Counted from the first letter of the stretch, positions 190 through 33,544 are shown. The stretch: 64,000 nucleotides of DNA from Euglena gracilis (GCA_039621445.1 CP154954.1:45797847-45861846); one strand, 5' to 3'. Notes: generated by a model not told the origin, from the sequence alone. Numbers and translations are program-made.

Positions 190-498
190 AGTGTACGTCT
201 GATTCCCAATTCCCCTTTCCCAATTCCCAAAAGCCTTCGCTTTCGCCTTGGCGCACCTACTTGGGAACTGAAAATCAGAGTAACAGTGAAAACCCTTTTC
301 CCACTTCCCAAGAAGCAAAGCACGGAGCAATGCAGGGAGGACGGACTGGAAATCCAAGTCCGGTCCAAGGAAAAGGTATAAGAAGAATAAGAATACCACC
401 TGTGGAGAGAAGGGGCACCCATTAGGAAATCCTAATAGGATCTGCTTCCATCCTAACTTCCTCAACGGAAGGGGACAGAAGCATACGCCTGGTACACA
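190..498 (-). repeat. 3' LTR of element A (309 bp; TGTGTAC...GTACACT on minus strand)
   Basis: Matches 29927-30237 except one substitution and a 2-bp GA indel; preceded on the minus strand by a PPT. Confidence 0.95.
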
Positions 499-514
499 TC
501 CCCCTCCCAGGGCT
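499..514 (-). promoter_or_regulatory. Polypurine tract of element A (AGCCCTGGGAGGGGGA)
   Basis: Abuts the 3' LTR; identical to the PPT of element B at 19628-19643. Confidence 0.85.
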
Positions 515-3109: not shown

Positions 3110-3114
3110 CAAGG

Positions 3115-3543
3115 TGTGTACCAGGCACGTCCCAGCTCTGTAGGATATCTGCAGAGTGGGTTCTGTGACGGTCGCACCACTGTGGAAACCCACAGCTGGT
3201 AAGATCGTGGCAGACCCTTCTGGGATCTGCCCCTGGACACGTCAGCACTTTTCTCTCCTTCCCCCACAGGTGGTATTCTTTACTCTCACAATCTCCAAGT
3301 TTCACCATTGGTTTTGTCAGAGGGAAAAACCCTCAGAACAATCAACTTTGATCTCAGAAGAAAACTTCTGAATCTTTGCTTTGTGCTTTGCTTCTTGGGG
3401 AATTGGGAAGAAAAGGGGAAAACCACTTTTCGTTACTCCAAAGACTTTTCCCTACCATAAGTAGGCTGCGCACCAAGGCGAAAGCGAAAGGCTTTTACAG
3501 AAAGTCCCAAAAAGGGAAAAAGGGAAAGCTTTGGACGTACACT
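3115..3543 (+). repeat. 5' LTR of element B
   Basis: TGTGTAC...GTACACT; direct repeat of 19644-20072; followed immediately by PBS TGGTAGCAGA. Confidence 0.96.
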
Positions 3544-3738
3544 TGGTAGCAGAATAGGTCAAAGATCCTACAGAAAGAAAGGCTACCAGGTAATACACTT
3601 GGTAGCAGAATAGGTCAAAGATCCTACAGAAAGAAAGGCTACCAGGTAATACACTTGGTAGCAGAATAGGTCAAAGATCCTACAGAAAGAAAGGCTACCA
3701 GGTAATACACTTGGTAGCAGATTTAGGCAACGATCCTA
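3544..3738 (+). promoter_or_regulatory. Tandem primer-binding-site array (tRNA-iMet; PBS at 3544, 3600, 3656, 3712; 56-bp unit)
   Basis: TGGTAGCAGA is complementary to the 3' end UCUGCUACCA of non-plant-type eukaryotic initiator tRNA-Met; three identical 56-bp units plus a diverged partial fourth. Confidence 0.88.
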
Positions 3739-3965
3739 CACAGACGTTCCACACAGAGAAACTCTGTGGTTGACTGGTGGTGAGGATCGTACTGAGCCGT
3801 GAAACACGGTGAAAGTACTGTTCCTGGCCCCTAGCCAACCTTTAAGCAAGGATACAGGTCTCAGAAGGCTCTGTTCGGTAATCGCCGATACAACCTTTCT
3901 GGTCCCTGTTTCTCTGCTTATTTGTGTGAATTTTTGGGTTTTTGCCTTTTTACCCATCTCAAAAG

Positions 3966-6900
3966 ATGCAGAGCACAAGCCCCAACCCCAAATTTGATTA
4001 TGACTTGTTGATGAGTTCATTGAGCAATTGTGATGAAGATTGCGGGGATTGGAACGGTTTGAATGAAACAAGTTCCAATTCCCGACCCCCCAAGCAAGAA
4101 GAAGGCAATTTGACTCATTTGTCATTGTCAAAAGGCGAAACGCCTTTATCATTGCATGGGGGTAATGAACCCTCTTCATCATCTTTGTCATTGATTGTCC
4201 GGGATGTAGGTGGCAAAATGCCTTCCTCCATCCCGATTCACCCATCATTGATGCGGCGAGGGGATGAACCCCTTGCACCCCCACACTTGGTTACTCATGT
4301 TACCCATGAACAAAGTGAGGGGTATTTGCCCTTTGCTCTGTTCACACCCAAAAGATCCCCGGTGGAAGCACCGGTGGGCCTTTTGGAGTGCAACTCGGTG
4401 GAAACACCGTGTTTTTTCCAACCCCCCCCTCAATTACCACCCCCCACACCATTTCACGCTTTGCCGGGATTACCCGCGGAAGCTGCGGTTTTCCCTGCAT
4501 TGCCATGGAACCCAGATATGCGTCTGGTGGTGCCGGAAATCTCTGGTGCCGTTTCTATTGTGGAGGACTATGAGGAAGATTTGAGGGATAACCTCACCCC
4601 CGGTGATGTTTTCCGAATTCTCGGTCAACTTCCAGCGGATCACCCGCTTAGCAAGCAAATTTTGCATGTCCACCAATGCGTTGCGGAATGCGCAACCATG
4701 CTCAACAAAGTTTTGCAGTTCGATGAGGACAATCAAAGGGTTGTCAACACCAAACTGGAATGTTGCTGGAATTATTTGCAGGAAATCGGCAAATATTGCC
4801 AACACAATTTTGAAAATGCGGGGAAAGACCTTCAGCATTTTCGAGAAAGTGTTGACAGTATTTTGCGCATCCAACTTCCACAAAATTTCCAACAAATCAG
4901 CGAAATGCTGCATGAAGCGGAAACGCGGAATGATTCCAAGTTTCTGCATGTGCAGGATGGTATGAGCCATCTTTTTGCCCAATTGGAATCCTGTTCAACC
5001 ATGTTACTGCAATTGCAGCAGCAGTTACAAGCGCAAAATGCCACCCCCAAAATGCCGGAAATCGGTAACTTTGTCGCGGTTGAGCATTTTGCCACACTTA
5101 CCACTTCTTTTCAAGAAGCGCAACAACGGATTTTGCATCTTGGCTCGGAAATCGAGCACTTGAAGCAATTTCAAGCGAAAGTGCAAGAGAATTTTGTTCC
5201 CCGTTCGCAAATCCAACTTTTGGAGGAACGAATTTTACACTTGGAGCAAAAATCCTGCCATTGTGCCGCAAATCAGGATGGATTAACCACCTTGAACGCG
5301 AAAATCGCAGATTGCGCACAACGGTTGGATTTTACGCAACAACAAATGCAAACGGACATTGGCGGTATTAATGCCACCGTTGTCGGTTTGCAGGAGCATG
5401 TTTTCGCACTTTCCAAGCGAATTCCCGACATTAGTGGTATTCAAGCCGCTATTGGGGAATTGCAAACCCGTTGCACCTTGTTGTCTACCACAGTGACGGA
5501 AATCCGCTCACTACCCCCCATTTCGCGTGCTCGGATATCCGAGTCACCGGAATTTCGCTCATTTTATGACAAAGTGCTTGGTGACAACAAGGAAACCTTG
5601 CAAGCATTTTGTACAAGTTTGCTCCAAATCGAGGAAAGCGTGAATCGGAATGCCCGATCCATGCAAGATGAGGTTTCTCGGTTGGATGGACGAATTTCTG
5701 CGTTGTTGGAAAAGCCAACCGCGGAAAATTCGCGCACCACCGTGGAAACCCCCAACAAGTCACTCCACCAATTGCAAACCGTCTCAAATGCGGTAAAAGC
5801 GCTTGCGGGTCAACTCCGGAATGTGGAGGAGTCCCAAGGAAATCTTGCCCAAGAATTACAATTGGTTTCTGAAAAGATGCCACACTTGGAAGATTTTTCC
5901 CGTTACCGCAAACGCGTTAGGCATTTGGAGACTGAGGTTGACCGTATTTGCGGCCAACTCCAGTTGGTGGAACATTTGGAAGAAACGGTGCATGACTTGT
6001 CCGCGAGTCTGGATAAAATGTCCACTCCGGTACCGGTTGTGCCACCATCCACCGCGGTAAGCGCTGCGGTTGGTATTCCAAATGTCCCGGAATCGCGTTC
6101 TCAAATTACCATTTCTGGAGTAGGAATCCCTACATCCACTGCGAATTTGGTACAACCACCCGCGAAAACGCGAATTGTACCACCTTTGCATTTGCCAACA
6201 CCACAAACACACTCTTCGCACGACATTTCCGATGAGGAAATTGGCCCCCCCACTCGAAAATTCGAGTCTCCACCAAGAAATTCAACATTCCAACCTTGCA
6301 GGAGTAATGTGCCAACACCCCACACCTGGTATTGGTCATGTGTCGCATTCGCGATCATACCACCAACCGACGGGTTCTGGAATGCCAGACCACCCATCGG
6401 CTTTTCGCCGGGCAACCCGCCCCACTGGGAGGAATTTCACCACATTTTCGCGTTTCCCGCAGGAAAATCCTGCCAACCTTACACTTGGTGCGGGAAATCC
6501 TGCACGGGTTACACATGGAGCGGAAAATCCGCGAAACGCGTTTGGTGTTAAGAATTACCCTGACCCAAACCCCTGGAATACCACCGAGGGTCAGCGGGTT
6601 ACTCAGAGAGACTTCAAGGGCACCATCGCAATCGCGAACAAGGTGAAACCCCAATGGGACGGGGATCCAACCACATGGAGACAATTTTTTCGGGATTGGG
6701 AGTACTATTGGGCACTAAAAGGACCCACCCAAGACCCGAATCCCGAGGTAGTCAAGATGGAATTCATCGATTGCCTACCGAGGGAGGAGCGAGAACGCGC
6801 ACGCAATTTGGTGATACGTAATGGCGTATCATTCGATGACCTGGTTGAGCAATACGCTTCAACCAATTCAAGTCTGGTCACCAGGATTACCCTGGAGAAG

Positions 6901-8043
6901 AAGTGGCGACAAAGCGCGCCATCGGATCGCAAATGGAAATCCATTGACCTTTGGTATGCCAAATGGTTAGCACTTGCTTCCGAAGTTGATGAACTTAGCG
7001 AGAAGCAAATGCGTGAACAATTCGATGCGGTTTTGTTGCATTTCACACCATCCCTCGTGAAGGATATCCATCGCGAGGAGTTGGCAGGGCATGAGATGAC
7101 TCTTGCCCAACGTTGGAATTATGTGTCAAAGCAACTCAAGCTCACACAAGTTTTGGGACAAATACAGTCCGCTTTCCAAACGCATCCCACCGCGGGAATC
7201 CCTGCGGGTGCGGTTAATGCATTGCAAAAATCACCCATGTCACCAAGATCACCCACCACGGGACCGAAAACGCGGAATCAGCGTTCTTCGGACCAGGGCA
7301 CGGATAAACTGTGCTTTTTGTGCAACAAATCTGGTCACATGTCTCGGGAATGCCCGAATCCCGATGCGCGAAAGCGTATTGGAAGCCCAAGGGGCTCGAC
7401 CTCCTCACGGGGATCGGGTTCCTCGGCGTTTTCACGTCAATCGGCAGTTTCACGGTCTTCGGAGAACCGCTTTAGCGGTAGTAGGCCCAAGTCACCATCG
7501 CGTGATGGTCGGGAAACCCGTCCTTCTCGCGGTCGGTCACCTGGCCCCCCTGCCCGAAAACGGGATTTCAACCGCGATTCTTCACGATCTCGTTCGCGAA
7601 GTGGATCATCCTCTTCACGCGAGTCAACGGGGAAGTCCCGATACACCGGTCATGGTCGACGGGAAACCCGTTCACCACGACGGTTTGACGGAAAACCGGA
7701 ATACCGTTCCCCCCGTTATGCGGAATCCCGCCACAAATCCCGTTGTTCACTTTGCGGTTCCAAAGATCACCACGCATCCAAATGTCCCAGATCTCGTTCC
7801 CCCCGGCCCGGCTACGGAAATCGCGGTAAGCGCCGCGATGACCGTGGTTACTCCTCCAACCGGCAAAAGGTCGGTTTCAAGATATCTTGTTTGGAGGAGG
7901 ACACCCCGGCTTCGGGCAGGGAGGGGGATGAGACCTCGGACGGGGAATTTAATGAGGCCCGAATGGCGGTGCGCTCATTGAATTCCATCTATTCCACCAA
8001 AAAGTCCGTTGCCGGCTATGCGGCCGGTTCGGACTTGGAGTAG
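3966..8043 (+). pseudogene. gag: Gag of element B (~1,360 aa; one frameshift near 6245-6260)
   Basis: Start MQSTSPN matches MQSTGPN of A; heptad-rich N-terminal half; capsid-like WDGDPTTWRQFFRDW; zinc knuckles CFLCNKSGHMSREC and CSLCGSKDHHASKC; RS-rich region. A is open across this frameshift position. Confidence 0.88.
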
Positions 8044-8079
8044 GGGAGCCCGAGGTCCGAGGGCACGGACCTCTGGGCT
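8041..8079 (+). promoter_or_regulatory. Putative gag-pol UAG readthrough signal (UAG-GGG plus stem-loop)
   Basis: TAG GGG AGCCC-GAGGTCCG-agggca-CGGACCTC-t-GGGCT; identical in A (25634-25672, minus), where pol is in frame with gag across the TAG. Confidence 0.78.
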
Positions 8080-9480
8080 GATGAACAGATGGAGGTAAGA
8101 CCTGATCAACCTTACCCCCCCTGCCCATCCGCCTTCACGGTCAGTACCCGGAATTATTTCGGGTCCCCTACCCCCACTCCACATTTCCGCTCGGAATGCT
8201 GAGCAAAGTGGGAAAGGGTTCATGGGAGAGCTGGCATGCAAACGTATTTCCGCCAGACCCTTCACTTTGCGTACCACCAATGGAATTACTCGTCCAAGCG
8301 GAAATCCGCATCCAAAATTTCTCCACTAAAGTTAAAATTCTCATTGACACTGGTTGTCGCATTGCACTGCTCTTTCGGTTGGGGTTGATACCGACCCCGC
8401 TCTTGGTAAGCGCCAAGAAACCGATCAAAATTACAACCGCGGATAACACCCCCATGTGTGGTGGTGATTTGGGATGTGTGCTCGAGATACTCTTGCCCAT
8501 CATTCCGAAGCATCACTCACAACCCCCACAATTACAACATTTCACCAATATTTGGGGTTACGAGTCCGGAATTCACGGGTCTGACGTAATTTTGGGATAC
8601 CCATTTTTACGCCAGTACCGATTGGTTGTGGATTGCCACTCCCACGGTTTGCGCACAGCACCCACCACTTCATTGACACCCAAACCACCATCACCGTTGT
8701 CATCCACTATGATGACCACCGCTTTGCCCACACCGTTACCCACAATGGCAACACCGTTACCCACCACACCAACAACCGTTTTCCACACCCGGGGTACGGA
8801 GAAAGCCTCCCCCCTGCCCAATGACACACCAACATGCGTTCCACATGAGGCAGGGCAAGCGAGTAGCGGTACCCCCACCGTTCCACTGGGTTACAAGACG
8901 AAAGCCCAAAGGCCTGAAGTAATTACGGTGTCGAGTAGTCGCCCAGCTACACCACCACTCCGTTTCCCACCAGTTGTGCCGAATCCAGGCACACCTGTAC
9001 AAGACTCACCGGCTAATGCCATCGACACCCACTTTCACGCACACCCGTCACACCATCACACTTCCTTCCAATGTGTGCACTGCAGGAGAATTTCCACCCA
9101 ATCGGATTTCGATTGTGGATGTTTAGTTCAAAATCCGACACTAATCGCAATTCCGAAAACGGAATCCACCACCCATGATACACTTGGTTGTAGCCCGCAA
9201 TGCGCGGAGATACACCGAGTACTCCAACAACGCGGATTAGCCTCGTTGTTCGGAAACCGCGAAAAGCGCGATTCCTAATTACAATCGCGATCACCCTTGG
9301 TACGGATTTGATGCGGAATGGGGAAACCCCCAACCTGTCCAAACTCCCTTGGGATCAACCCTTGTGGTAGTGGAAGACAGCCCGCATGTTTGTGGATCCA
9401 TTCATTGTGTTTCTACCCTTCAACCCGAAAATCGGGTGCATGAATACGCGAAACGCGTATGGAATGCTTTCAATTTTGGT

Positions 9481-9888
9481 CAATATCGCATTTTGGAACG
9501 ATGGTTTTCCAAAATCGCGACATTGGCAAATTCTTTTGATTTGGCATTGGAAATCGATGCCTTTTCATCCAATGCACATGCCCGTTTGCCACGTCATTGG
9601 TCACAACACTCCAACGCATTTGATAAATTTTGGGGTGATACGGTGTTATGGATGCACCCTCCCCCAAAACTTATCGAATGTGCGGTTGAGAAAATTCTGC
9701 GGGATGAAGCCCGTGGAGTTATTCTCATACCCATCATTCCGGAAGCGGAATGGTTCACACAACTATCGTATGTATGTTTTCATTGGTGGGATTTACCCAC
9801 TAATGTACCGATTTTTGAGGATTTTTGTGGTAAAATATTACCACCCTTGCAAGAAATCATTTTTCGCGTATGTTTCTTCGATGCATTC
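9481..9888 (+). other. Dam-like N6-adenine DNA methyltransferase-fold domain inside pol (between PR and RT)
   Basis: EIDAFSSNAHARLPRHWS...NAFDKFW...LWMHPPPKLIECAVEKILRDEARGVILIPIIPEAEWFTQL follows the DIRS1 MT pattern (IDLFAS..N..LP.Y.S...DAF...W...[NF]PP..LI..VL.KI.....ILIVP.W....W...L). Confidence 0.75.
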
Positions 9889-12800
9889 GGAATGTCCGAA
9901 TTCGCGGTGCCGAGGAAGCTCGGTAGCCCCAGGGATACCCTGGCGGTTTCCGCAGTCATCGAGAGTGCAGGTCAGCATCCTAAATCAGCCGAATTCTGTT
10001 CGCGGATTACCCGCGAATTCCACGGTGTGCTGGAAAATCCAGTATACGCGTGCGACATCGACCCCGCGATACGCGGTCCGTTCGGTGTTTGTAAGATCGA
10101 GCTTAAGGATGGAGCAAAGCCAATGCACAGGAAATTTTTTCGTTGTTCGGGAGAACGCGAACAAGCTCTCAATGAAATGATTGAGAAGCTTATTCAGCGC
10201 AAGTGGATTGTACCCTCGAAAAGCGAGTGGACATCCCAGGCATTTGTTGTTCCTAAACCCCCAGACCCCTCAGGTCAGAAGAAATGGAGGCTGGTGCTGG
10301 ATTACCGGTACCTGAACTCCCAAACAAGGGATGATCCCTTCCCGCTCCCCCTGATCGAGGATTTGATCACCAAACAATCGGAAAACCGGTTGTGGTCAAT
10401 TTTCGATCTGGAGGACGGTTTTCACCAAATGCACTTACACCCTGACTCCCAACCATACACGGCATTCGTGACATCCAAGGGTGTGTACCAATGGACGGTA
10501 CTCCCCATGGGTGTTAAGAATGGCCCAGCCATGTTTCAGCGCATGATTCAATGGGTTCTACGCGATTAACCGTTTGCCATTGTGTACATTGATGATGTGC
10601 TGGTGGGAACACCACCACCATCCGCACAATCGAGCGAGGATATCCTCGTCACACACTTCCACCATGTTTGTGCGGTATTAACCGCTTTTCAAAAACATGT
10701 GCTTTTCGCGAAAGGCGCGAAAATGCATTTGTTTCGGATACTTATAAAATTTTGCGGTCACATCCTCAGCAATGGACAGCGGAAAGCCGCTCCGAGTAAA
10801 CTCGAAGCCATTAAGAAATGGACCCCTGAGGTAATCAAAACGATTACTCACCTCAAAGGATTCTTGGGATTAGCCCAATACTACGCGATTTATATGAAGG
10901 ACTTCGCGAAAATCGCGGTGCCCCTCACCAAGCAGCTCAAAAACCGGGCTGTTGACAACACCAAAGTCATTTGGGATGACCAAATGCGCGAGGCCCTTGA
11001 GAAAATCAAGGTTTTGCTTTTGGAGAATGTTGTCCTCGAAATCGCGGACCCGTACAAACCATACGTGTTGGAAGTCGACAGCAGCGATTACGCTGTTGGC
11101 GGAGTTCTTAGCCAGCATAATGCGGCGAATGAGCTCCGACCTGTGGCTTTCTTCAGCAGAAAGTTACAGGGCGACGATGGAAAAGGTCAAGTCAAATGGA
11201 GTATACGCGAGAAGGAAACCTACGCAATCGTGCTTATACTCCAGAAATTCCGAAGCTGGGTAGCCAGCAGCCTCGTCCAGATCCTCGTCAAGACCGACCA
11301 TGAGAGTCTCCAACACTGGTACACCGAGGATTTGAACAAGGCCATGTCATCGGTCGGAAGGCGATGCAGATGGCATGAGTTCTTGAGTCAATTCAACCTT
11401 GTGGTTATCTATACCCCTGGTCACACACAAAAAGTAGCGGATCCGCTCAGTCGGGCCCCTTGGTATTACCCTGGGAACCCGGATGAGGGAGACGCGACTT
11501 TTCATGGAAGTCAGGAAGCTGACGACTACGCACGTCGAAACGACGCTGCGGATAATCTTTTGGATTCTTTTCCCGTTTCACAACTATTCCTGGTCGCACC
11601 AGTGCGAGGAAGGCGCCGACGTGGAAGCACGTCCGGGCCCCGGCGTATTACGCGCACGGAGTCCCCTTCTCCACTGTTCTTTCGCGAATGGGATTATAGT
11701 CGTGATCCGGTGTATGACACCATTGTCACCAGACTTCGTAATGGCGAAGTGCTGGACAATTACACTCTTTCACCTTTACGGTTGGTTTTTCGCAATGAAT
11801 CGGGTTACAAATATTGTATCCCCCAGGACCTGGTTGATGATGTGATTTTGTGTTATCACAACCATGGTCACCCTGGGGCCCCCAAACTTCTTTCGTTGGT
11901 GGGCCGCAGGTACTGTACAACCCTGAGCGAGAAAGAGCTTTACTCACGCTGTTTGCGAATAGCGCAACGGTGTCAAATTTGTCAAGCGGTAAAACCCCGC
12001 AGAGGTACCCCCCCTGGTACGATGGATTTTTTTCCCGTACCCCCTGACATTTTTACATCCCTCTGCATGGATTTTCTGGAATTGGAACCGTGCAAAGGAA
12101 CAGACGACAAAATTTACGATTACGTTTTTGTTGTCGTCTGCAGGCTGAGTGGGTACATTGTAGCCATTCCATGCCAGAAGTCAGGGTTGACTGCCCAAAG
12201 TTTGGCAACTATATTTTTGGAGAAATGTATTTGCTTGATGGGTTTACCGAATGAAATCGTGAGTGATCAAGACCATTTGATTTCTTCAAGGTTTTTCACC
12301 ACTTTGTGCGGTTTACTCGGAATCGAGCAACATTTTTCCATTATATACCGACCCAAAGGCAATGGTAGAGCCGAGGCAGCCGTGAAATCCGTCGTGAATA
12401 TGCTTCGCCTTTCACTGGCTGACTCGCGCAGCAACTGGATATCAGTTCTACCATGGTCTTTGTTTTATATCAATACCCTACCAGGGTTGGTTTTACCTCA
12501 CTCCCCCTATAAATTAGTTTTCGGACGGGACCCTCCGGCCATAGGGGATGTCCCTTCGGAGAGACCCGCCCGAACGAGTGTCAGTTGCGAGACCTGGTTT
12601 GCGGAAGTAGAAAATCTACGTTCTGCAGTCCAGAAGCGCGTCACTGATATTCATGCAGCAAAACGGAAATCGTTTTTGCAGAATTTCAAGTCACCTGTTT
12701 ACAGCCCCGGTGACCGCGTGTGGGTACGGAATAGCCGTACTCGCATGCAGTCTTCCAAGCTGGACCCCCTCTGGCTCGGCCCCTGTGAAATCCTAGAAAG

Positions 12801-12954
12801 ACTAGGTACCAGCGGGCGTTACAAGGTTGCATTACCGAATGGTGTTGAGGACGTTCATATGGACGACTTCAAACCATACCTGTCGCCACCGGATGGGAAA
12901 CCCATCCCGTGTTTGCACTTCAAACCCCGTTCCAGATTACCTGAGACGGACGAC

Positions 12955-13120
12955 TTTGTAGTCGATAAAATTATCGATCACAAAATCGACAAAGGTATGC
13001 ACCTTTGGAAGGTCCGCTGGAAAGGGTATGGGCCCGAGGAGGACACTTGGGAGCCAGCAACCAGTTTTGTTGGGTATGTCCAGCAAGATTGGAAGCTGTG
13101 GAACAAGAAACATAACATTG
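12955..13120 (+). other. Chromodomain at the integrase C-terminus
   Basis: [34 protein letters not shown] with canonical aromatic-cage residues F/W/Y; also present in A (about 24020-24190, minus). Confidence 0.92.
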
Positions 13121-13305
13121 ATGTTTCCATGACAAGTTTTTGAGAACGCATGGGAAACCCATGTTGTTTTCTCTTCTTTTTATCATTGATTCTTATCATT
13201 CTTTCTTTCCGCAGACTTTTTACCAAATAATACTCAAGCGGTTACCCTCACACACCTTACAACCAACAACCCAAACATCCCACCGTACCGACCCCGGGCT
13301 GTATC

Positions 13306-16300
13306 ATGCTGCCCGGCGGAAGGGAGCCAGGCGGAGGACCGCCTTACCACCCCACCACTCACCCTCAACCTGACCAGTATGCGTACCGATACGGTACGCA
13401 GCCACCTGCACGGACTGCGGCTCAGGGAAACCCTGAAGCCAGCAGCAGTAGCAGGATGACCCAGATGCCCGCGGAAGCGCGGCCATCTCAGCCATCAGGC
13501 TCTCGTCGCCTCCCACCGTATGCGGGTGTGATGATCCACCGCACGGCGGAGACGATGAACCGGGTTATGCGTATGAGCGCAAACCCGGCACCAGACCAAC
13601 TCACACAGGCATTGTGGGATGACCACTGCCGTAAAGTTTTGACCATCGCGAATACCCCTCCAGCCCTGTGGTGTATGTGCGCCCAGGCGACGATGACCGG
13701 TCTGGTGTATTACACCGACCCGGACGCGTCGGGTTTCGCGGCAGACATTACCATGCGTGACCTGGGCGTGGAAGTCCCGCCACAGGTCGCCAGGCAGGTA
13801 CCACCTGTTGGCACTTACACTGCACATTTTCGTGCTCACTCCCCCGGATTACCCGAGGAAGAGACGGTGGAAGCACCTGTCCGGAGTGAACACCCACGTG
13901 TAAAAGAAAGCATTTTTCGATCCCCTGAGCGCGTGCCCCGGCGGGATTATCCTGCGCAGGAGCCTGTGTCTCAGTATACCGTCTCTGGGGATTACCCCCA
14001 GCAGGCGCCAATGCCACGGGATCAGTACGTATATCCACCTCAACCCCACCCAACCATACCTGACCCTATCCCACGACGTCCTGCGGAGGGAAATCCTCCC
14101 CCGACGTCTGACTCTGCCCGAAGCGCTCGTCCGCGGGAAGCCGCGACAGCGCCTCGTGCGGCACCAGTTCCCCCGGCACGGGATGAACCCGTTAACCCGT
14201 GGACTGGTCGGCCGTTCGAGACTGAGGAGGACCGTCAACAGTATGAATATGCTGTGACGATCCAACGACAAATCGCACGTCGCCCCCCTGTTTCCGCTGG
14301 CCAGGGATACCCTGCCCGGGCGGAAATGACACGGGAAGAGCGCCAGCAGTATGATGCTGCTGTGTCGGCTCTCACAGGAGTCCCAGCTCCATCACGGTCA
14401 AGTCAACCAGCGCAACAGCGGGACGTGGCTGTGGCGGAAGCGCCACCAGCACGACCCACAAGCTCTGCCGCCGGCAAACGTGACCGCGGCCCGGAAAATC
14501 TGACGCCGCAGCCACAACGCCGCTCGCCGAGGTCGGAAAATCCGCCCGCGGCGATGCGCGTCGACGCTGAGGAGGAAGCTCCGCCAGCGCCCGACGTGAC
14601 GGCAGAACGGGCACGTCGGGAAACCCGACCATCCCCAGTCGCACCGGTTTACTCGAATCGTGGTGATGCTGAGCAGGAATTTGCTCGAACACCAAGCACG
14701 GAATCCGTGACTTATCCTGTGTATACAGAAGAAGACCCAGAATACTGGGAATATTGGGACCCATATCGGGCGACGATAGAATGGCTGTCCAACACGAAGG
14801 GCAAGGGTAAAGGAAAAGGCAAGGGTAAGGGTAAAGGTAAAGGCCAGGAGAAAGGTGGGAAAGCCCCATCTGGGAAAGGCGGAAAACCCGCTGGACCACC
14901 TCCAGGCAAAGGCGGAAAATCTGCCGGACCCCCAGCAGGAAAAGGCGGAAAAGCCGCCGAACCTTCGAAAACGAAGGATTACGACGCTGACCAGCTGTTC
15001 GATTACTTGGATGAAATCTGGCCGAAAATCGACCAGGATCTCGAAAAGTACACGCGTGCTGGCAACGTGATCCACCGACCACCGGAAGCGGTGCTCGCAG
15101 TGGTGCAGGATCGTATGCACGATCACTGCAAACGATTCATCTACAGTACCGAACTTCATCCGTTTGAGGGATACCCTCATTCGGATGAAATGGTCCTGGA
15201 CCAGATGTCTGGTTTCTGGGAACTCTGGTTCTGGTTGGGATATCCCTGCCAGAACTTTGGCATTTTCACCGACCGAAACGGTCTGACATACATCGATTGT
15301 TTGAACACATGTGAAGACGATGAAACATTCGTAGCACAGTTGAAGGAAATCTTCAACCACATGTATTCCGTCAGCGCACTGGGAATCCAGTGGAAATATT
15401 ACCCCCTGCCGGAGAAACTCCAGGCGCAGGCTGCGGTAATGTTCACAAACAACCTCCAAGTATTCTTGGACAGCATGTATGGCATGCTGTTCAAGGTACT
15501 GGACGTGGACCTCGCCTACCCTCAACGATACAAACTGGAATGCCGGTTTTGCAAGGAAGTCCACATTGTTGACTTCTGGGGTTTTGGGGAGCGCGGAAAA
15601 CCGCCTCCGACTGCCGAGAATGCCGGCAGCCCACCGACCAGGAGATTCCTCCTGCACCAGTGCCGGAAACCCCAGATCGGAACGCAAGACCGGAAGGTGC
15701 TGAAACAGCACCGGCAGAAAATATTTCTGCTCCAACAATACTGGCACAGGGCGTGGATTACCTACGTCCTGGAAGTATATATATATTTCCTGGAACAGAT
15801 GACCACCGATGTGGATATCCACAGGAAGTGGATACCTCGGGGATACACCGAGGTAGATGCCAGACCGTATGATCCAGACCGACGCAGGATAAACCTGCGG
15901 CCGGACTGGACGGGGGCAGAAATCGGCCTCCGGGAACACCTGCAGAGCCAGTTCGGGGAAATCCTGGACTGGCAGGAGTTCGAAGTGTTCTTCGCTCCCC
16001 GCGAGCTAACCCAACCTCGCTACGCAGTACCACTGCCAGCTTTCCTGGAAGAAACGGGAGAGTACGGTATGGGTGAGACTCGTCGATCGCAGTGGGAAGA
16101 CCTCTGCCTGATCAACGAGGATGAGCCTCAACCTCCACCCGGAAGCTGGGTGCGAGCGTCGTGGCCACCTCCATACCCCAACTCTGACAGGAGTGAAAGT
16201 ATTAGCTTTTTCCGCCTGTCAAATGCCCAAGGGTGCTACAGAAGCAGGGAAGACCCGCGTTCTGCAGCCCAACTACACACAGAGGAGTCCCCTCTGGAAG

Positions 16301-18750
16301 CGGAGGAGACAGGAGAAGCGGTCCCAAGGGCCGAGGATGAACCTCTGCCTGCGGAACCCCCGGCACGGGAAACCCGTAGCCCGTCGGTCGTGATGCTGGA
16401 CACTGTGGCGGAAACCGCCCAGCGCCCAGGATCACCGAGAGGTGAACTGACGCCTGTCCCACTGTCACCATCCTCGCTGGGTACGCCTGGCGGACCGACC
16501 CCTCCGCGGGAAAACCCGCCGGAGACGGTAACCCCTACGCCTGAGGTATTACGCCTCAAGCTTCCTGTCCCCGGGGAAATCCCGACGACAGAGGAGCCAG
16601 TGGAGGAACCCACTTCAGGGGAAGGACCTGAACGGCGCCCCTCACTGGGCGGACGTGTACTCGGCGGTTTGCGATCACTGATCGCAGTTGTCACACCACG
16701 TGGCACTGCGGCTAGTTCTTCCACTGCTGTGGCGGAAACGGCCCAGCCAGCGGACGAAACAACTGAAGCTGCAGCCATGGAGGAGGATGAACTTCCCCCA
16801 ATAGCCGCGCCACCGTCGGTGTCGGAAACGACACGGACGGAGGGCGAACCAACGGCAATGTCAGTGGTGACAACGCTACCCGTGCCAGTGCAGGATGAAC
16901 CTGCATCAGCACCGGTAGCGACATCAGAGGCACGGGATGAGCCCGTAGCTCCACACACATCGGCCACTGCACCGAAGCGTGCGGACACACGGACACCGGC
17001 ACCTGAAAAACAGGCTGCACGGACATCCATGCCCCCACCACAAACTCAGCCAACGCGGAGTGCAGCGGCGACGCCCACACCCACACCGTCCCCCAAGGCT
17101 GCTCCTGGGAAACCCACGAGCGCAGCGAAAGAACGCGTAGGGCGACCCTCAGCTCGGGAAACCCCTGCTGAAGGTCAACGACGCTCGGTGTCGGGGAAAA
17201 GACCCCCGGCCCAGCCGTCACCACGCACCTGGTCAAGCAAGCGTGACGCCGAACGGCGACCCTCGGATGCTCCGGAAAGCGGAAGTCCGAAGGCCCCGGC
17301 CAAATCAAAACCCGGTGCCGCGCCTTGCAAACCCTCACCTAAGACAGGTGATCAGCCCCCACCGAAAGGCGGTGGTGGTACTGGAGGCCAGGGTGCATCT
17401 TCTTCTCGAGGATCATCCTCGGGAGGAGGATTCACACAGGTCACATCATCCGGCTATGGAAAAACCTCACAGCCAAAACCACCTACGAAGGGGCAGGGAA
17501 AATCCCGCGCCTCTACAATTACGACACCTTCGGAAGGCGAAGTTGTCATCGACTGGAATGCGATGACTCAGGATGATCCTGAGACTCATGACCTGAAAAA
17601 CAGGTACATGATGATCGAACACAAGCTGCGAACAGACCAATGTCTTAATCGGTGGATTGAACCACTGTTCTGTCAAGGACGGAAATGGTCCTTTGACCAG
17701 AATGTCACCTGGAATTATTACAATTCCAGATCACCACGTGTTTTGGCCCAATACTTTGGCGAGGAATTCCTCGTCGACAGAACATCGGAAAACCGATTTG
17801 TGTGGCTTTGCACTGTTTGCCACAGGATGTACAACAGTGCCCCTGACTTGGGATTACCCCTCGTCCATGTGTGCAACCCTGTGGAGCGGAAATCGTTCCA
17901 CAAGGATATGTACATCCCCAACTGTGCCGCCTTGGTATGCGCCAAGTGCGTGGACAGTTGGACCCACAAGCACAATTTTAGCTACACGGACCGAGATGGT
18001 ACGAATGTACCAGTACTCTGCGTCAACTGCCTGCGAGGTACCTTCTGGCACACTGCGGAAGGCGCAGTTCGCACAATCGTGCCGAGTGCCGAGAAGCCAC
18101 TGGAGGAATACTCCACCTTGAACAAAAAGTTCAAGGACTTCTTCAAGTATGCCAACCTCAAGCTGGACGACTACCGCCACACGGGAATGGCCCGTGGGTG
18201 GCAGATCGACAGTGGGGCGATACGCCTCGCTGCTGAGGAGGCAGGGGTAAGATTACCTTACCTCTGGGAGACAGCAGACAGGGAAAAGATACTTTTCCGC
18301 CTGTTCACAACCCAGGACCGAAACGGTCGCTGGTGCCTACCACAATGGCCGCCCGAAAAACACGGGATGACCTGGAAGGACTGGCTAGGGGCCGTATTGC
18401 GACCCCATACCGTCCGGGCGGAATGCGCCTATCACGTTCCCATTGACTTCCACCCGGGGAATGCCCCGCAGGTGTCAGCCAACCACCCTCGGAGAAACTA
18501 CTTCATCTGGCCAGCGACTTTGCCCAGGAAATTCTGGGAGAAGCTGCAGTGGTTTCTCGCGGAAAGAGCGAGTGCCACCAAGCAGACAGTACCCGAAGGA
18601 TGGGTTCGGGACTGGATCGCACCTGATTTCGACTATGACTCGCCAGAAACCTGGCTTGTCGACAGGCCACAGCCACCACAATTCCAGATGGTCCTTGTGG
18701 AAGATCCCTTGGACTCCCGCCATGACTATTGGCGGCTGGAGCGGATGTAA
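13306..18750 (+). CDS. ORF3 of element B: 1,814-aa protein of unknown function (Pro-rich disordered linkers, GK repeats, two Cys/His-rich globular modules)
   Basis: Uninterrupted 5.4-kb ORF between pol and the PPT; homolog in A shares the start (MLPG) and conserved blocks (PPYAG.MI.RT.ET, GFWELWFWLGYPCQN, LAYPQRY.L.C..C, RSPRVLAQYFGE). Confidence 0.92.
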   Translation: MLPGGREPGGGPPYHPTTHPQPDQYAYRYGTQPPARTAAQGNPEASSSSRMTQMPAEARPSQPSGSRRLPPYAGVMIHRTAETMNRVMRMSANPAPDQLTQALWDDHCRKVLTIANTPPALWCMCAQATMTGLVYYTDPDASGFAADITMRDLGVEVPPQVARQVPPVGTYTAHFRAHSPGLPEEETVEAPVRSEHPRVKESIFRSPERVPRRDYPAQEPVSQYTVSGDYPQQAPMPRDQYVYPPQPHPTIPDPIPRRPAEGNPPPTSDSARSARPREAATAPRAAPVPPARDEPVNPWTGRPFETEEDRQQYEYAVTIQRQIARRPPVSAGQGYPARAEMTREERQQYDAAVSALTGVPAPSRSSQPAQQRDVAVAEAPPARPTSSAAGKRDRGPENLTPQPQRRSPRSENPPAAMRVDAEEEAPPAPDVTAERARRETRPSPVAPVYSNRGDAEQEFARTPSTESVTYPVYTEEDPEYWEYWDPYRATIEWLSNTKGKGKGKGKGKGKGKGQEKGGKAPSGKGGKPAGPPPGKGGKSAGPPAGKGGKAAEPSKTKDYDADQLFDYLDEIWPKIDQDLEKYTRAGNVIHRPPEAVLAVVQDRMHDHCKRFIYSTELHPFEGYPHSDEMVLDQMSGFWELWFWLGYPCQNFGIFTDRNGLTYIDCLNTCEDDETFVAQLKEIFNHMYSVSALGIQWKYYPLPEKLQAQAAVMFTNNLQVFLDSMYGMLFKVLDVDLAYPQRYKLECRFCKEVHIVDFWGFGERGKPPPTAENAGSPPTRRFLLHQCRKPQIGTQDRKVLKQHRQKIFLLQQYWHRAWITYVLEVYIYFLEQMTTDVDIHRKWIPRGYTEVDARPYDPDRRRINLRPDWTGAEIGLREHLQSQFGEILDWQEFEVFFAPRELTQPRYAVPLPAFLEETGEYGMGETRRSQWEDLCLINEDEPQPPPGSWVRASWPPPYPNSDRSESISFFRLSNAQGCYRSREDPRSAAQLHTEESPLEAEETGEAVPRAEDEPLPAEPPARETRSPSVVMLDTVAETAQRPGSPRGELTPVPLSPSSLGTPGGPTPPRENPPETVTPTPEVLRLKLPVPGEIPTTEEPVEEPTSGEGPERRPSLGGRVLGGLRSLIAVVTPRGTAASSSTAVAETAQPADETTEAAAMEEDELPPIAAPPSVSETTRTEGEPTAMSVVTTLPVPVQDEPASAPVATSEARDEPVAPHTSATAPKRADTRTPAPEKQAARTSMPPPQTQPTRSAAATPTPTPSPKAAPGKPTSAAKERVGRPSARETPAEGQRRSVSGKRPPAQPSPRTWSSKRDAERRPSDAPESGSPKAPAKSKPGAAPCKPSPKTGDQPPPKGGGGTGGQGASSSRGSSSGGGFTQVTSSGYGKTSQPKPPTKGQGKSRASTITTPSEGEVVIDWNAMTQDDPETHDLKNRYMMIEHKLRTDQCLNRWIEPLFCQGRKWSFDQNVTWNYYNSRSPRVLAQYFGEEFLVDRTSENRFVWLCTVCHRMYNSAPDLGLPLVHVCNPVERKSFHKDMYIPNCAALVCAKCVDSWTHKHNFSYTDRDGTNVPVLCVNCLRGTFWHTAEGAVRTIVPSAEKPLEEYSTLNKKFKDFFKYANLKLDDYRHTGMARGWQIDSGAIRLAAEEAGVRLPYLWETADREKILFRLFTTQDRNGRWCLPQWPPEKHGMTWKDWLGAVLRPHTVRAECAYHVPIDFHPGNAPQVSANHPRRNYFIWPATLPRKFWEKLQWFLAERASATKQTVPEGWVRDWIAPDFDYDSPETWLVDRPQPPQFQMVLVEDPLDSRHDYWRLERM

Positions 18751-19627
18751 TGCCGAAACGGCATTACCAAGCCCATGTAAGGTAAGCGCCTTCATGGAGC
18801 TCATACACTATATATATATATACACTGGAAGCGGAAATCGCTAAACAGCCCTGGGATGAACCTGGGTCTGTGTCCCTCAGCGCTATGGATGGAAGCATCC
18901 AAGAGCCCCCCCCCCCCCAACCCATTATACCAGTGACCATGCGGACGGAAACCGTCTGCGGGAGGTAATTGCCTCTTATTGCGTCGTGAAGGAGCTACTG
19001 CTGTGAAGACCTTGGCAGCCGGGAAACCTGGCAAGCCGCTAAGTGACGCACAGCACACAGCGCGCACGCCGTAATAATAGGCCAACTTGTCACTTTTCGG
19101 CCCTAAGGCCCTTAAGGCTGCCAGACAGCAAAAATTCTGTTCTGGCCTAAGCCAGCCCCCCTCTCCTCCCTACTTTCCCCCCACCCCCGCAAAGCTGTCG
19201 CCGGCAGTCGGTTTTGTAAGTAGGCTTTTGTTTCCTAGTGCGGATATGACCGCCTAGGAGCCTTATCCGGGTATGACCAGGATAAGAGCCTGCCCCCCCC
19301 CTTCCACACCTCTCCCTTGGGTTTTCAGCGAATCGCTTGACCAACCCCGCGTGCCTTTGGCACACCCAAACTGGGTGGATGGGACACTTTGTCAGGAAAC
19401 CTGCCAAGCCCCGTTTCCCACAGTGGGCTTCTTCACACCCCACCTAAGCCGAAACGGCTAATAGGTAACCGCGAAACGCGGCTAACCTTTTGCGCGTTTT
19501 TGGGCTTTGGGTGGATGCCACTGTGCGGAAAGGAGAGACACCGAATGGAGAAGTGAACCCCACCTGGGGCAGCGTCAGATATCCTGACTGGACTGGGAAA
19601 CCCTGGTCCATGAAGGAAATCGGGCGT

Positions 19628-19643
19628 AGCCCTGGGAGGGGGA
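19628..19643 (+). promoter_or_regulatory. Polypurine tract of element B
   Basis: AGCCCTGGGAGGGGGA directly before the 3' LTR. Confidence 0.88.
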
Positions 19644-20072
19644 TGTGTACCAGGCACGTCCCAGCTCTGTAGGATATCTGCAGAGTGGGTTCTGTGACGG
19701 TCGCACCACTGTGGAAACCCACAGCTGGTAAGATCGTGGCAGACCCTTCTGGGATCTGCCCCTGGACACGTCAGCACTTTTCTCTCCTTCCCCCACAGGT
19801 GGTATTCTTTACTCTCACAATCTCCAAGTTTCACCTTTGGATTTGTCAGAGGGAAAAACCCTCAGAACAATCAACTTTGATCTCAGAAGAAAACTTCTGA
19901 ATCTTTGCTTTGTGCTTTGCCTCTTGGGGAATTGGGAAGAAAAGGGGAAAACCACTTTTCGTTACTCCAAAGACTTTTCCCTACCATAAGTAGGCTGCGC
20001 ACCAAGGCGAAAGCGAAAGGCTTTTACAGAAAGTCCCAAAAAGGGAAAAAGGGAAAGCTTTGGACGTACACT
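19644..20072 (+). repeat. 3' LTR of element B
   Basis: Direct repeat of 3115-3543 (3 substitutions by eye). Confidence 0.96.
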
Positions 20073-23000
20073 CAGGGACCCTGCGCGGTGTCGGTGGTCG
20101 TGGGGGTATCTCCTCCACTTCCATTTCGACATCCGGTCTAGGAGGTTGATCCTCCACAACCGCTGGCGCAGGTGCTACAGGAGGTTGATCCTCCGCTGTA
20201 GCCGGTGCGACAGATGGCTCTGTCGGCTGGGGTTCATCCCCTGAAGGTGGTTGCACTGTTGCCGGAGATGGGGGTGTGGGGACACCGACATCTGGTGTCT
20301 CCACGACCTCAGCGGCGGAGCTTGATGCTACACCTCCACCTCGTGGCGTTAGTGCAGCAGCCACGGCAGTAATGCCAGTGACCACGGCGCCGAGCACACG
20401 GCCTCCTAACGACGTGCGTGCTGTGGGACTGGCAGGTTCTTCGAGGATATCCTCGACGACCATACCAGTCACCTCGGCTGGAGGCTCAGCCGTTGGAACA
20501 GGCGTAGCAGCCACAGGTATATCCCCTGCGGGTGCTTCGTCTGGCCGAGGCTGTGCCGGAGCATGCAGAGCAGCGTAGAGGATATCCTCCACGTTCTCAC
20601 CTTCCTCCTCAGGAAGTTCCTGTTCTCCACCTACCGGTGGACAGACGGGAGCCGTCGCGGGGGCCGGGGAAACCGATCTTTCCCCTGCCGCTCGCGGGGC
20701 AGAGACGAAGGATACAGCCGTTCCTGTCGGAGACGGCGGCGCTGCCTCCAGAATGGTGACAGAGGGGCTGCGGTCGCGTTCCTCCCGCCGCGGAATCGCG
20801 GTGGTGGAAGCGACTGACGCCTCCCGTCTCCTTCGCGCCAGAGGTTCATCCTCTGGGGCGATGAAGGCGCGCAGATCCTCGGGCGAACGAGGATCGTCGG
20901 GGTGCCATCGGCATCCCTGGGCATCCGCCAGCCTGTAAAAGGCCAGCGTACTGCTACTGGCGCTGTTGGGCCAGGGTGGCGGCCATGATGGCTGCACCCA
21001 AGCGTTTGCAGGCCTGTTCGGGCCCAGGAAGCCGCGATAACGCGTGTCTTCCCAGACCTCGAAAAACCCGTCCTCGAACTCCTGCACGCATGCCAGAATC
21101 GGCATACCCAGGTCGAGGATGGCCTTCGGGTGATTCATCAGCTGGAGGAATACCTCCCTGTCGAGGGTACCGCCAAACTGTCGCCTCAAATGTTCCTCCA
21201 GGTCTATCCCGGCCAGGTGCCAGTTGGGGCGCAGGTCGGCGATAACCCGACGACGACGAGGTCCCTCAACGGGGTCGCCGTAGTCTGGTGGCAAGCTTTC
21301 CATACCAGGCCTATCGTCCTGGGGGTCACGGAGATGTATATACACCTCCATGACGTAGGTGGTCCAGGCTCGCCACCAGAACTGTTGCAGCATAAAAATA
21401 CGCTGCTTGTGGACGCGGCGACTTTTGCCCTGGACATCCGGGGCGTCGCGGCACACATGCATAAGCATGCGGCGTCCCATCTCCAGGCCCGGGTTATCCC
21501 GAGGCGGTGGAGGACTTCCGCGCACGCCGAATCCCCAGAAGTCGACAGGAAATTCCTGCCGGCAGTACTTACAACAGAGGTCATACCTCTGTGGGTAAGC
21601 CAGGGAAACGCGCTTAACGCGGAAGGTGGAGCCGTAATGGCTCACCAGCCACACCTGGAGGTTGTTGCACCACAACACCTCGATCAGGCGTTCGATGTCG
21701 GGGTTCAGTGGGTAGTATTTCCACTGCACACCGAGGGGCCCGACTGTGTGAATACAGTCGAAGATTGCCTTCAGCCTTCGGGCCAACACATGCTGGTCCC
21801 GAAATCCTAACTGGTGCAGGTAACTGCGGCCAGTGGAGTCGCTGAAGAGACCCCAGTTCTGGCAGGGGTATCCCAGCCAAAACCAGAGTTCCCAGAAACC
21901 CGGCTGGGCATCCAGCAAGGGTCTGCCACCTTCACCTTCGAAGGCGTACAGGTCAATTCCGTAATGGAATTGTCTGACTCTGTTTTCGGTGTGGTGTAAT
22001 ACCACCTCGATGACTGCCTCCGGAGGGGTGACGGGGCGGTTTCCTGCAACATGGTAATCATGCTGCATTCGCCAGCCTTCGTCCTCCAGCTCCTCCTTGA
22101 ACCTGAGCATTTGCTCAAAGTCCGAGAGGACTTCTGCTGGTTCTTCCTCCTCCTCACGGGCTGTACCCTTACCCTTGCCCTCACCCTTACCTTTGCCGGC
22201 CACGCCTTTGCCTTCTCCCTTGCCTTTGCCCTCAGCCTTACCTTTGTCCTTCCCTGTCTGGCGAATACCAGAGGGTCGGGCGCTCGGTGCGGCAGGAGTC
22301 GGTTCGGTACCTTCCCATTCCATCTCTGGGGAGGGACCTTGTCGTTCCGCTGCACGTCGCGGTGACGGCGTGGTTGGGCGCTGGCTAGGAGCCTGGCGTG
22401 GGCTTGGTTTCGGCGTAGGGGGTCGCGGCTCCTTCCATACCGGAGGGATCGGCGGAGGCATTGCGGCAACAGGACGGCTCATCGCTGCCTGTGCCACTGC
22501 CGGTGGTTGCCCGGCCAGGGTATCCTGGCTGGCTTCCACCTGCATTGCCGCACCGCCTTCCGCGTCCCGTGGGCTGGGTCGCCTGGGCTGTGGGGTAAGG
22601 TTCTCCGTAACCCTATCGCGCTTCAGGGTGGCAGGTAATCCTGCCGCTCCTGCCGGGGGCTCACCGGGTAATACCGGGGTCGCCACCCGCAGCTGCGGCT
22701 GGTACGGATGGTAGGGGGTGTATCCACGACCCTGAAGGGCGGCCAGCGAGGAGTAATACCTCGCCCGGTGCTCTTCAGACGTGAATACTGGCTCCTGCAG
22801 GAAATGCCGAGCAAGCTCATCCTGCTCGGTTCCCGGAGGTGCCATGTGGTAGTAGGGAGCCTCCTGCCGACGGGGGACATCCCCAGTCTGGACAGGGGCT
22901 GCACTGGGCGGTCGGGCTGCCTCACGGTGGGGAGGTTCATCCTCCACCACTATGGGCTCCTCCTGCCTCCGTGGCTCAACGCCAGGGGCAGGGGCGACCG

Positions 23001-33465: not shown

Positions 33466-33544
33466 CGTCTCGTGTGTGTGTGTGTGTGTGTATGTGTGTG
33501 TGGTGTGTGTGCGTGCGCGCGCGTGTGTGTGTGCCTGCGTGCGT

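Follow-up and report, generated by a model that had tools for sequence, protein, structure and literature searches.

The question raised by a 64,000-nucleotide (nt) stretch of the Euglena gracilis genome (GCA_039621445.1 CP154954.1:45797847-45861846; the whole stretch is called the window hereafter) is what kind of element occupies its positions 3115-20072, where the genes of a Ty3/Gypsy-type retrotransposon are found together with a methyltransferase-like domain and a third open reading frame (ORF3) of about 1,800 codons. We consider it highly probable that this element, called B, is a young and now defective copy of a very abundant retrotransposon with long terminal repeats (LTRs), of the Ty3/Gypsy-type group carrying Dam-like domains and named DAM-LTRs. 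In the design that we propose, a single Gag of ~1,360 amino acids (aa), with a coiled-coil N-terminus, a capsid-like part and two zinc knuckles, would end in UAG, and a stable hairpin three bases past the UAG would promote occasional readthrough into Pol, in which protease (PR), Dam-like domain, reverse transcriptase (RT), RNase H (RH), integrase (IN) and chromodomain would follow in this order.

B is a complete, recently inserted 17-kb LTR retrotransposon of Ty3/Gypsy type, and its boundaries are defined by the following features.

3115..3543, plus strand: 5′ LTR of B, 429 bp, termini TGTGTAC...GTACACT
19644..20072, plus strand: 3′ LTR of B, 429 bp, direct repeat of the 5′ LTR
3110..3114, plus strand: left target-site duplication, CAAGG
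20073..20077, plus strand: right target-site duplication, CAGGG
3544..3558, plus strand: primer-binding site (PBS), TGGTAGCAGAATAGG, directly 3′ of the 5′ LTR
19634..19643, plus strand: polypurine tract (PPT), GGGAGGGGGA, directly 5′ of the 3′ LTR; the same tract precedes the 3′ LTR of element A (see below)

The direct repeats, the duplication, the PBS and the PPT together identify B as an LTR retrotransposon. The LTR pair shows 3 mismatches over 429 bp, and the two copies of the 5-bp target-site duplication differ by 1 mismatch. Three tandem 56-bp units at 3538-3740 each contain the last 6 LTR bases and the PBS, so that B has three PBS copies, against a single one in A. The window contains no tRNA gene according to a tRNA scan and no Rfam match. 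Within these boundaries the order is gag, UAG with hairpin, PR, Dam-like domain, RT, RH, IN, chromodomain and ORF3. The 17-kb anatomy and gene order had been proposed in an initial annotation made from the sequence alone, and the LTRs, Pfam domains, PBS, PPT and duplication all agree with it.

The same annotation had noticed in the window a diverged relative, element A, with a deleted pol core, and this was borne out as well; what it did not contain is that B is located within ORF3 of A, which lies on the minus strand.

190..30237, minus strand: element A, ~13.1 kb without B, with LTRs, PBS, PPT and duplication
190-498 and 29927-30237, minus strand: LTRs of A, 309 and 311 bp, termini the same as in B
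28060-29757 and 25670-28132, minus strand: gag of A, ending in UAG at 25670-25672
23999-25669, minus strand: PR, IN C-terminus and chromodomain of A
23802-20073 plus 3109-1323, minus strand: ORF3 of A, split by B
46745..46749, no strand assigned: empty site ACCCC for A, in the second copy of a ~4.9-kb repeat

The target-site duplication of A, ACCCC, is exact (185-189 and 30238-30242), its PPT is the same as that of B and its PBS is near-identical. The part corresponding to B element coordinates 5888-9348 (3.46 kb) is missing from A, which is thus left without Dam-like domain, RT, RH and IN core and retains the chromodomain. When B and 5 bp are excised, ORF3 of A becomes a stop-free frame of 1,866 codons, and this restoration is independent proof that B is a mobile insertion. 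The nested arrangement might instead have been created by misassembly, which the extreme abundance of the repeat family makes easier; this is barely credible, because clean 5-bp duplications are found at both insertions, excision of B recovers the 1,866-codon frame, and the matching empty site for A is present within the same window.

The domains of Pol were located by Pfam unless otherwise stated.

8106..9278, plus strand: PR (DTG, read from the translation), Pro/Thr-rich linker and Cys-rich stretch, frame 3
9466..9906, plus strand: Dam-like (DIRS-type) domain of predicted methyltransferase fold, motif I-like IDAFSS, motif IV HPPP
10108..10920, plus strand: RT (RVT_1), broken by TAA at 10567-10569
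10972..11394, plus strand: RNase H (RT_RNaseH_2 6e-24, RT_RNaseH 4e-23)
11818..12864, plus strand: integrase (Integrase_H2C2, rve and the Tf2-type SH3 domain SH3_Tf2-1)
12955..13062, plus strand: chromodomain at the integrase C-terminus (Chromo 4.4e-10, 39.8 bits against a cutoff of 25.1)

The order PR-RT-RH-IN is that of Ty3/Gypsy elements, and the chromodomain at the integrase C-terminus is that of chromoviruses, with which B also shares the H2C2 and Tf2-type SH3 modules and the 5-bp duplication. Typical chromoviruses are 5-10 kb long, whereas B measures ~17 kb, has a Dam-like domain between PR and RT and carries a third ORF; in addition, the Pol of B shares no more than 33% identity with named Ty3/Gypsy proteins, which come from fish, Chara and plants and are set apart by a long branch. 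Identity is far higher in the seven nearest pol relatives, at 76-86% in RT and 85-90% in RNase H, and the PR segment of B aligns with the N-terminal parts of their single pol ORFs. The chromodomain is 66-80% identical in six of the seven, the remaining one (P0009) being without that region. Between A and B, nonsynonymous divergence (dN) is 0.08-0.14 for the C-terminal part of Gag (gagC), PR and the IN C-terminus with chromodomain, and the ratio to synonymous divergence (dN/dS) is 0.28 for PR and 0.06 for the IN C-terminus with chromodomain. The chromodomain may steer integration into marked repeat chromatin, a role with which the landing of B in another member of its group would agree, a single insertion being no demonstration of targeting.

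B had been presented initially as a candidate new lineage that resembled no described family. This can no longer be held, as a preprint of 22 May 2026 (bioRxiv 10.64898/2026.05.21.726589) reports in its main text that Dam-like domains occur also in Ty3/Gypsy-like LTR elements, the DAM-LTRs, some with a chromodomain and including a Euglena group, and as the RT of B falls in a clade with such proteins. According to that text, chromodomain-bearing LTR elements make up 30.9% of the transposable elements with Dam-like domains (DAM-TEs). The five DAM-LTR lineages include a Euglena group with DAM, chromodomain and sometimes a DNA methyltransferase (DNMT), and elements having DAM, DNMT and chromodomain together, called EpiLTRs, are described from Cymbomonas and Euglena. 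The DAM-LTRs are proposed there to be retrotransposons exploiting host chromatin marked with N6-methyladenine (6mA). Such domains were earlier known from DIRS elements only (PMC5890265 and the same preprint, as far as the parts of these sources dealing with them go), and passages of PMC5890265 report elements with a DNMT from Symbiodinium, where they are of the LINE and DIRS types, and from Klebsormidium, where a Gypsy element carries DNMT3. In a literature search for chromoviruses combined with adenine methyltransferases, the preprint was the sole match.

The relatives of Pol point in the same direction. A word-indexed search with 1,300 residues of Pol returned 140 proteins, among them metagenome and assembly proteins up to 87% identical, and many of them carry PF05869 (Dam) together with Chromo. 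The C5 cytosine methyltransferase family PF00145 was found in P0042, P0043, P0052 and P0061, the first three of which also have PF05869; one further relative (P0025) carries a dUTPase (PF00692). Two clusters at ~40% identity contain UniRef entries of the euglenid Eutreptiella gymnastica. From 112 metagenome relatives of pol, 80 loci were retained; none of them exceeded 33% identity, most measured 1-3 kb, and they gave no information on the presence of ORF3 in relatives. A quick maximum likelihood tree of the RT-RH core was calculated (444 columns, LG+G4; 77 rows, left from 82 candidates after exclusion of 5 that were incompletely covered, the named rows being fish, Chara and plant only), with support expressed solely by the Shimodaira-Hasegawa-like approximate likelihood ratio test (SH-aLRT). 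B was placed in a 10-row clade (SH-aLRT 100) within a 32-row clade (99), to which both Eutreptiella-containing clusters belong and whose sister is a 20-row clade (95) holding all four DNMT-labelled rows. Together they form a 52-row clade (100) with B, all the Dam-carrying rows except P0068 and the three rows with both Dam and DNMT, divided from all named rows by a branch of 0.43. By themselves, this placement and the Eutreptiella-containing clusters make a euglenid host likely. A dinoflagellate host, considered at first because of the composition, was discarded: the dinoflagellate spliced-leader motif gave 0 matches in the window, and the Symbiodinium elements of PMC5890265 belong to LINE and DIRS and not to Gypsy.

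B thus has what characterises a DAM-LTR, a PF05869-type domain in the pol of a non-DIRS LTR element with integrase, and it likely belongs to the Euglena DAM-LTR assemblage of the preprint, a placement suggested by a tree built from sequences other than those of the preprint. B and the Euglena DAM-LTRs and EpiLTRs, as the latter are described in the preprint main text, are Ty3/Gypsy-like and have a DIRS-derived Dam-like domain, integrase and chromodomain in Pol, and the relatives of B include the C5 DNMT-bearing proteins of the sister subclade. B differs from EpiLTRs in having no DNMT, since no PF00145 match was found by Pfam in any ORF of B or A. It differs from the DAM-LTRs as described there in that its sublineage is without the Asn-Pro-Pro-aromatic pocket, called well conserved in the preprint, and has HPPP in its place, and in that the preprint main text is silent on an ORF3 and on a coiled-coil extension of Gag, the comparison being one of descriptions and not of sequences. 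As far as checked, B goes beyond the preprint in its orphan ORF3, its giant coiled-coil Gag and the degenerate catalytic motif of its sublineage, and as an exact, nested and dated example; the locus offers a complete DAM-LTR with exact boundaries.

To see how other copies look, contigs of four public runs (X1, X15, X17 and X18) were aligned to the element and their length and letter states were recorded. X1 gave 109,460 contigs on B with at least 90% likeness (34,226 with at least 99%, 43,357 with 95-99% and 31,877 with 90-95%), and in fourteen runs of the same organism, presumed to be DNA, 76-82% of the sampled words were present. The B family is clearly very abundant in the organism of X1, the summed depth not being a copy number. 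All 30 bins of B, ORF3 included, were covered in X1, X15 and X17, in line with the expectation that other copies would keep both the Dam-like region and ORF3. LTR elements are reported in PMC11252322 to account for 22-33% of a 2.4-Gb euglenid genome, and in its euglenid host the B family may make up a sizeable share of the genome. X15 and X18 are presumed RNA, and contigs cannot show transcription. X17, an RNA-Seq metatranscriptome labelled leaf litter, gave 321 contigs of 90-100% likeness over 3760-19640, reaching all 30 bins, and DNA may be present in it. The summed depth was lower over 15950-17539.

We then consider how Gag and Pol would be expressed. The relevant features are as follows.

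3966..6551, plus strand: N-terminal part of Gag, frame 3, from the first ATG, coiled-coil rich
6124..8043, plus strand: C-terminal part of Gag, frame 1, ending in UAG
8041..8079, plus strand: gag stop UAG (8041-8043) with hairpin, proposed readthrough signal

The N-terminal part is ~55% identical to its counterpart in A and matches NPV_P10 in Pfam (33.7 bits), with weak, sub-threshold matches to Laminin_II and CENP-F over residues 472-696. In the C-terminal part, one zf-CCHC knuckle was found by Pfam and a second, CxxCxxxxHxxxxC, was read from the translation; dN/dS of gagC between B and A is 0.16. A coiled-coil Gag of ~1,360 aa seems to be undescribed, and the main text of the preprint gives none (the word 'coiled' has 0 occurrences). 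The hairpin has a 13-bp stem with one bulge, starts 3 nt past the UAG and has a folding energy of -25.2 kcal/mol (z -3.5), and none of 200 shuffled sequences folded as well. It is identical in A, where gag and pol are contiguous in a single frame across the same UAG, and the 120-nt stretch is 98% identical between A and B compared with 81% for neighbouring gagC-PR. The UAG-hairpin design seen at the outset is strengthened by these values, and we regard it as a putative readthrough signal. Readthrough of UAG between gag and pol is known from gammaretroviruses, and B resembles this system in having an in-frame UAG between the two genes with a stable structure close behind. It differs in that the structure predicted in B is a hairpin alone with 3-nt spacing and that readthrough in B is putative.

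Absent from the initial annotation is that the B copy itself is defective: its reading frame is broken three times, and one stop codon is private to it. The reading frame changes at ~6245 (between the N- and C-terminal parts of gag), at 8170 (between gag and PR) and at 9257 (between PR and Dam), and an in-frame TAA at 10567-10569 interrupts RT just before YIDD. No other contig covering position 10568 has the letter of B there (X1 contributes 75 such contigs, and X15, X17 and X18 one each), and the stop is thus confined to this copy. For the three breaks, length variants that keep the frame were found as follows.

6245: in-frame length variant in 15 contigs of X1, 56% of depth; also in X18
8170: in-frame length variant in 53 contigs of X1, 39% of depth; also in X15 and X17
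9257: in-frame length variant in 10 contigs of X1, 11% of depth; also in X17 and X18

Two of the three break places, that near 6245 included, are C-runs, and A reads through the place equivalent to 6245 in one frame. Retroelements with several recoding sites are known, and at each of these three places the change of frame might be programmed recoding, in which case this copy would be closer to functional. The state of B is indeed common in X1, at 89% of depth at 9257 and 61% at 8170. Nevertheless we find this quite improbable, for PR and Dam are in a single ORF in the relatives P0003 to P0009, A has gag-UAG-PR in one frame and an uninterrupted equivalent of 6245, two of the three sites are homopolymer C-runs, prone to copy mutations and assembly errors, and the private stop in RT is there regardless. 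Within 9241-9278, the break at 9257 was seen in X1 DNA and not in the X17 and X18 contigs.

The domain between PR and RT had been described only as methyltransferase-like, and its identity is now better supported. With the B sequence alone, the Pfam Dam match scored 20.9 or 23.1 bits and thus stayed below the cutoff of 28.1. When the 285 residues that precede RT were used as query in an exhaustive HMMER search, 340 proteins reached E<=1e-3; of these, 100 reached E<=1e-10 and 11 reached E<=1e-30, and the matches spanned query residues ~76-220. When the query and 35 relatives were aligned, 28 of the 36 matched Pfam Dam PF05869 at E<=0.01 (best 2.6e-12, query 6.4e-5), with the family consensus DAFAS...W...LW.NPPF...GI..VP.W...WF...WWD.P. 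An AlphaFold2 model made with the alignment of relatives had a mean pLDDT of 90.2, and Foldseek gave PCIF1/CAPAM as its best match (E 1e-4, TM-score 0.53-0.57), other S-adenosylmethionine-dependent methyltransferases being weaker. VIA-align against 48,161 chains ranked PCIF1 first (Z 10.4, root-mean-square deviation 2.6 over 127 residues), followed by PH1948 (Z 9.7), METTL5 (Z 8.8), the KsgA/Erm family (Z ~8), M.BseCI and T4 Dam (Z 7.8), M.TaqI (Z 7.6) and EcoDam (Z 7.5). A profile search of Protein Data Bank (PDB) sequences with the Dam alignment gave 0 matches at E<=1. The domain thus genuinely belongs to the Dam-like family of retrotransposons, and its predicted fold is that of a class I methyltransferase. 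It shares the PF05869-like family with the Dam-like (MT) domain of the DIRS tyrosine-recombinase retrotransposons; in B, however, the domain precedes RT in an LTR element that has an integrase, and its motif IV is degenerate. PCIF1 (PDB 6irw, 6irx) is the best structural match of the predicted domain, and two relatives of the domain show weak PCIF1_WW Pfam matches; the sequence identity is, however, 12%, the match covers the catalytic core alone of a ~480-residue structure, and the motif IV of PCIF1 is NPPF, against HPPP in B. A common fold shows no common substrate.

Whether the domain writes a mark was judged from motif IV, whose Asn/Asp and aromatic residues have known functional roles. HPPP in B deviates from (D/N/S)PP(Y/F/W). 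Motif IV was counted in 330 proteins returned by the searches, of which 214 have the domain and 193 have residues at the four columns. The canonical [NDS]PP[FYW] occurs in 72 of these 193, and its frequency depends on the distance from B: 0/17 at 45% identity or more, 7/27 at 35-45% and 64/140 below 35%. Close relatives have HPPP, HPPL, HPPA, HPPS, NPPI, NPPL, NPPV and similar forms. Over the whole domain, B is 74% identical to P0009 and 44-50% to the other six of the seven nearest pol relatives, compared with 32% and 14-25%, respectively, over the linker preceding it, which indicates that the constraint on the domain is relaxed but real.

One view of these data, along the model proposed for DAM-LTRs, is that the domain is an active N6-adenine methyltransferase marking the element's own cDNA or RNA:DNA intermediate, so that marked new copies enter 6mA-associated permissive chromatin. 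The fold predicted with high confidence, the adenine-N6 enzymes among the best structural matches, the retained motif I-like DAFSS and central PP of motif IV, the conservation exceeding that of the flanking linker and the 6mA enrichment on DAM-LTRs, including those of E. gracilis, stated in the preprint main text are all in its favor. We nonetheless think it unlikely for B, as HPPP has neither the Asn/Asp nor the aromatic residue and none of the 17 close relatives is canonical, which makes writer activity doubtful and weakens the earlier suggestion of a DNA-mark writer. In E. coli, other eukaryotic DAMs gave no 6mA gain on expression, according to the same text. From these motifs an adenine methylase is less likely than a module, non-catalytic or altered, that binds nucleic acid or a cofactor; in the sublineage of B the domain has kept its fold but lost the canonical catalytic tetrapeptide, and catalysis is probably lost or altered. 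An abundant sublineage that keeps the domain without the canonical motif bears on the question of whether such domains act as methylases at all.

The remaining part of the element is ORF3.

13306..18750, plus strand: ORF3 of B, 1,814 aa from ATG (MLPG...); open frame 13231-18750, 1,839 codons

ORF3 begins with MLPG in both elements (1,838 aa from ATG in A), lies between pol and the PPT in both, and exceeds 1,800 open codons in each of them, the two proteins being 36% identical over the full length. Stops in the other two frames of the span number 43 and 64 for B, and 38 and 66 for A. The proportion of nonsynonymous differences (pN) between A and B is lower than that of synonymous differences (pS) in every block (N block 0.33 vs 0.62, C block 0.34 vs 0.72), with dN of 0.44-0.69. 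Better-conserved blocks are found at residues ~81-200, 640-1000 and 1450-1839 of the open frame, and the last contains conserved C-x2-C-H, H-x-C, C-x4-C-x2-C and C-x2-C groups and the motifs YRHTGMAR and ANHPR.NY.IWP. The composition is rich in Pro (12%), Ala (9%) and Arg (8%), with (GK)n runs and long Pro/Ala-rich stretches, and the GC content by codon position is 0.64/0.53/0.58 compared with 0.54/0.41/0.51 in pol.

Could ORF3 be a captured host gene fragment, or a frame left open by chance in GC-rich, low-complexity sequence? It is more GC-rich than pol, has the long Pro/Ala-rich stretches, gave no relative and no Pfam family, and has a 535-aa antisense frame open within it; on these grounds the idea is understandable, yet it is very unlikely given the same position between pol and PPT in A and B, the length of both frames against 38-66 stops in the others, pN below pS in all blocks, and coverage end to end in three runs. 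A, moreover, lost 3.46 kb of pol yet kept ORF3 intact. From this comparison ORF3 is a real, lineage-restricted gene of the element; it is under purifying selection, present in many copies and, it seems, undescribed. The antisense frame (535 codons, 14398-16005, minus strand) is probably a by-product of GC-rich codon usage.

Relatives of ORF3 were sought widely. No family was found in Pfam up to E<=10, and BLASTP against the 330 collected proteins gave no relative. A word-indexed protein search, which needs shared 5-residue words and length windows, found none among 7,999 candidates for the full length and 2,089 for the C-terminal 360 aa. JGI metagenome contigs and IMG/VR also gave none, the best hit to PDB sequences was insignificant (RNF141 RING, E 0.57), and the best ESM Atlas scores for two blocks were 0.81-0.82, below a meaningful level. 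RING-type clusters of the ESM Atlas at 0.78-0.79 are a lead only. AlphaFold of the C-terminal block with two alignment rows gave pLDDT 29.5 and no usable fold. In the preprint main text 'ORF' occurs 4 times, in no case for a third ORF, and 'envelope' 0 times. No transmembrane-like segment was detected by a crude hydropathy test (maximum Kyte-Doolittle 19-residue mean 1.16), so ORF3 is not envelope-like and is unlikely to play the part of an envelope; basic clusters, looked for in a simple way, were absent as well, and the nuclear appearance first ascribed to it has no support. Giant plant LTR retrotransposons with extra ORFs are known (Ogre, Tat/Athila), and B is similar to them in its large size and an ORF beyond gag-pol. 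It differs in its host group and in that ORF3 is not envelope-like and has no similarity to anything searched.

We regard ORF3 as a family-specific accessory gene that evolves fast but under selection; most of the protein would be disordered, with folded parts in three blocks that include a possible zinc-binding Cys/His module, although such an interaction module is only a lead. Our best guess is a host-interaction or chromatin/nucleoprotein factor expressed from a separate processed RNA. A bolder combination, which we put forward tentatively and consider possible rather than probable, is that ORF3 of ~1,800 aa, mostly disordered and with a Cys/His zinc module, represents a new class of accessory protein, whose retention by pol-deleted, non-autonomous derivatives suggests an action for the element, in cis or on host defences or chromatin, and that the Dam-like domain is a pseudo-enzyme or has been retargeted to RNA. 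If this is true, the domain, whose closest solved fold is PCIF1, serves the RNA or nucleoprotein of the element and not the writing of 6mA in DNA. In any case the B locus shows that a DAM-LTR can have a very large third gene that is an orphan under selection, and ORF3 could be among the most highly copied coding sequences lacking known function in the euglenid host.

The design proposed at the beginning has to be set against several points that weigh against it. Readthrough is a proposal, and in B itself gag is out of frame with PR, a state that holds for 61% of X1 depth at 8170. PR and Dam share one frame at 9257 in just 11% of X1 depth, and the shared break could reflect +1 recoding, a large defective subfamily mobilised in trans or an assembly effect. 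Loss of catalysis is read from a single motif and from the known roles of its residues, and the proteins in which the motif was counted are not an unbiased sample. In addition, the preprint main text gives the Asn-Pro-Pro-aromatic pocket as generally conserved in eukaryotic DAM domains and reports more 6mA on DAM-LTRs in E. gracilis. The relatives that point to a euglenid host are ~40% identical, and the window yielded no host marker. For ORF3, nothing positive on function was obtained.

Comparison of A and B by module gave different synonymous divergences, 0.36 in PR, 0.49 in gagC, 0.63 in IN-C and saturation in ORF3. This result indicates that A and B are mosaics formed by recombination between lineages, the ORF3 modules having split earlier.

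Outside the two elements, the ~4.9-kb repeat occurs twice in the window with 99.6% identity (1-189 plus 30248-34993 and 46561-51494, 16.5 kb apart); one copy holds A and the other is the empty site, and the repeat may itself be a repeat family. Short dispersed or tandem repeats rich in C-runs are found at 41861-44138, 34708-34911 and 51210-51715, with units of ~47 and ~115 nt, for example CCCCC..TTTTCAGAATTACGGTTGG.

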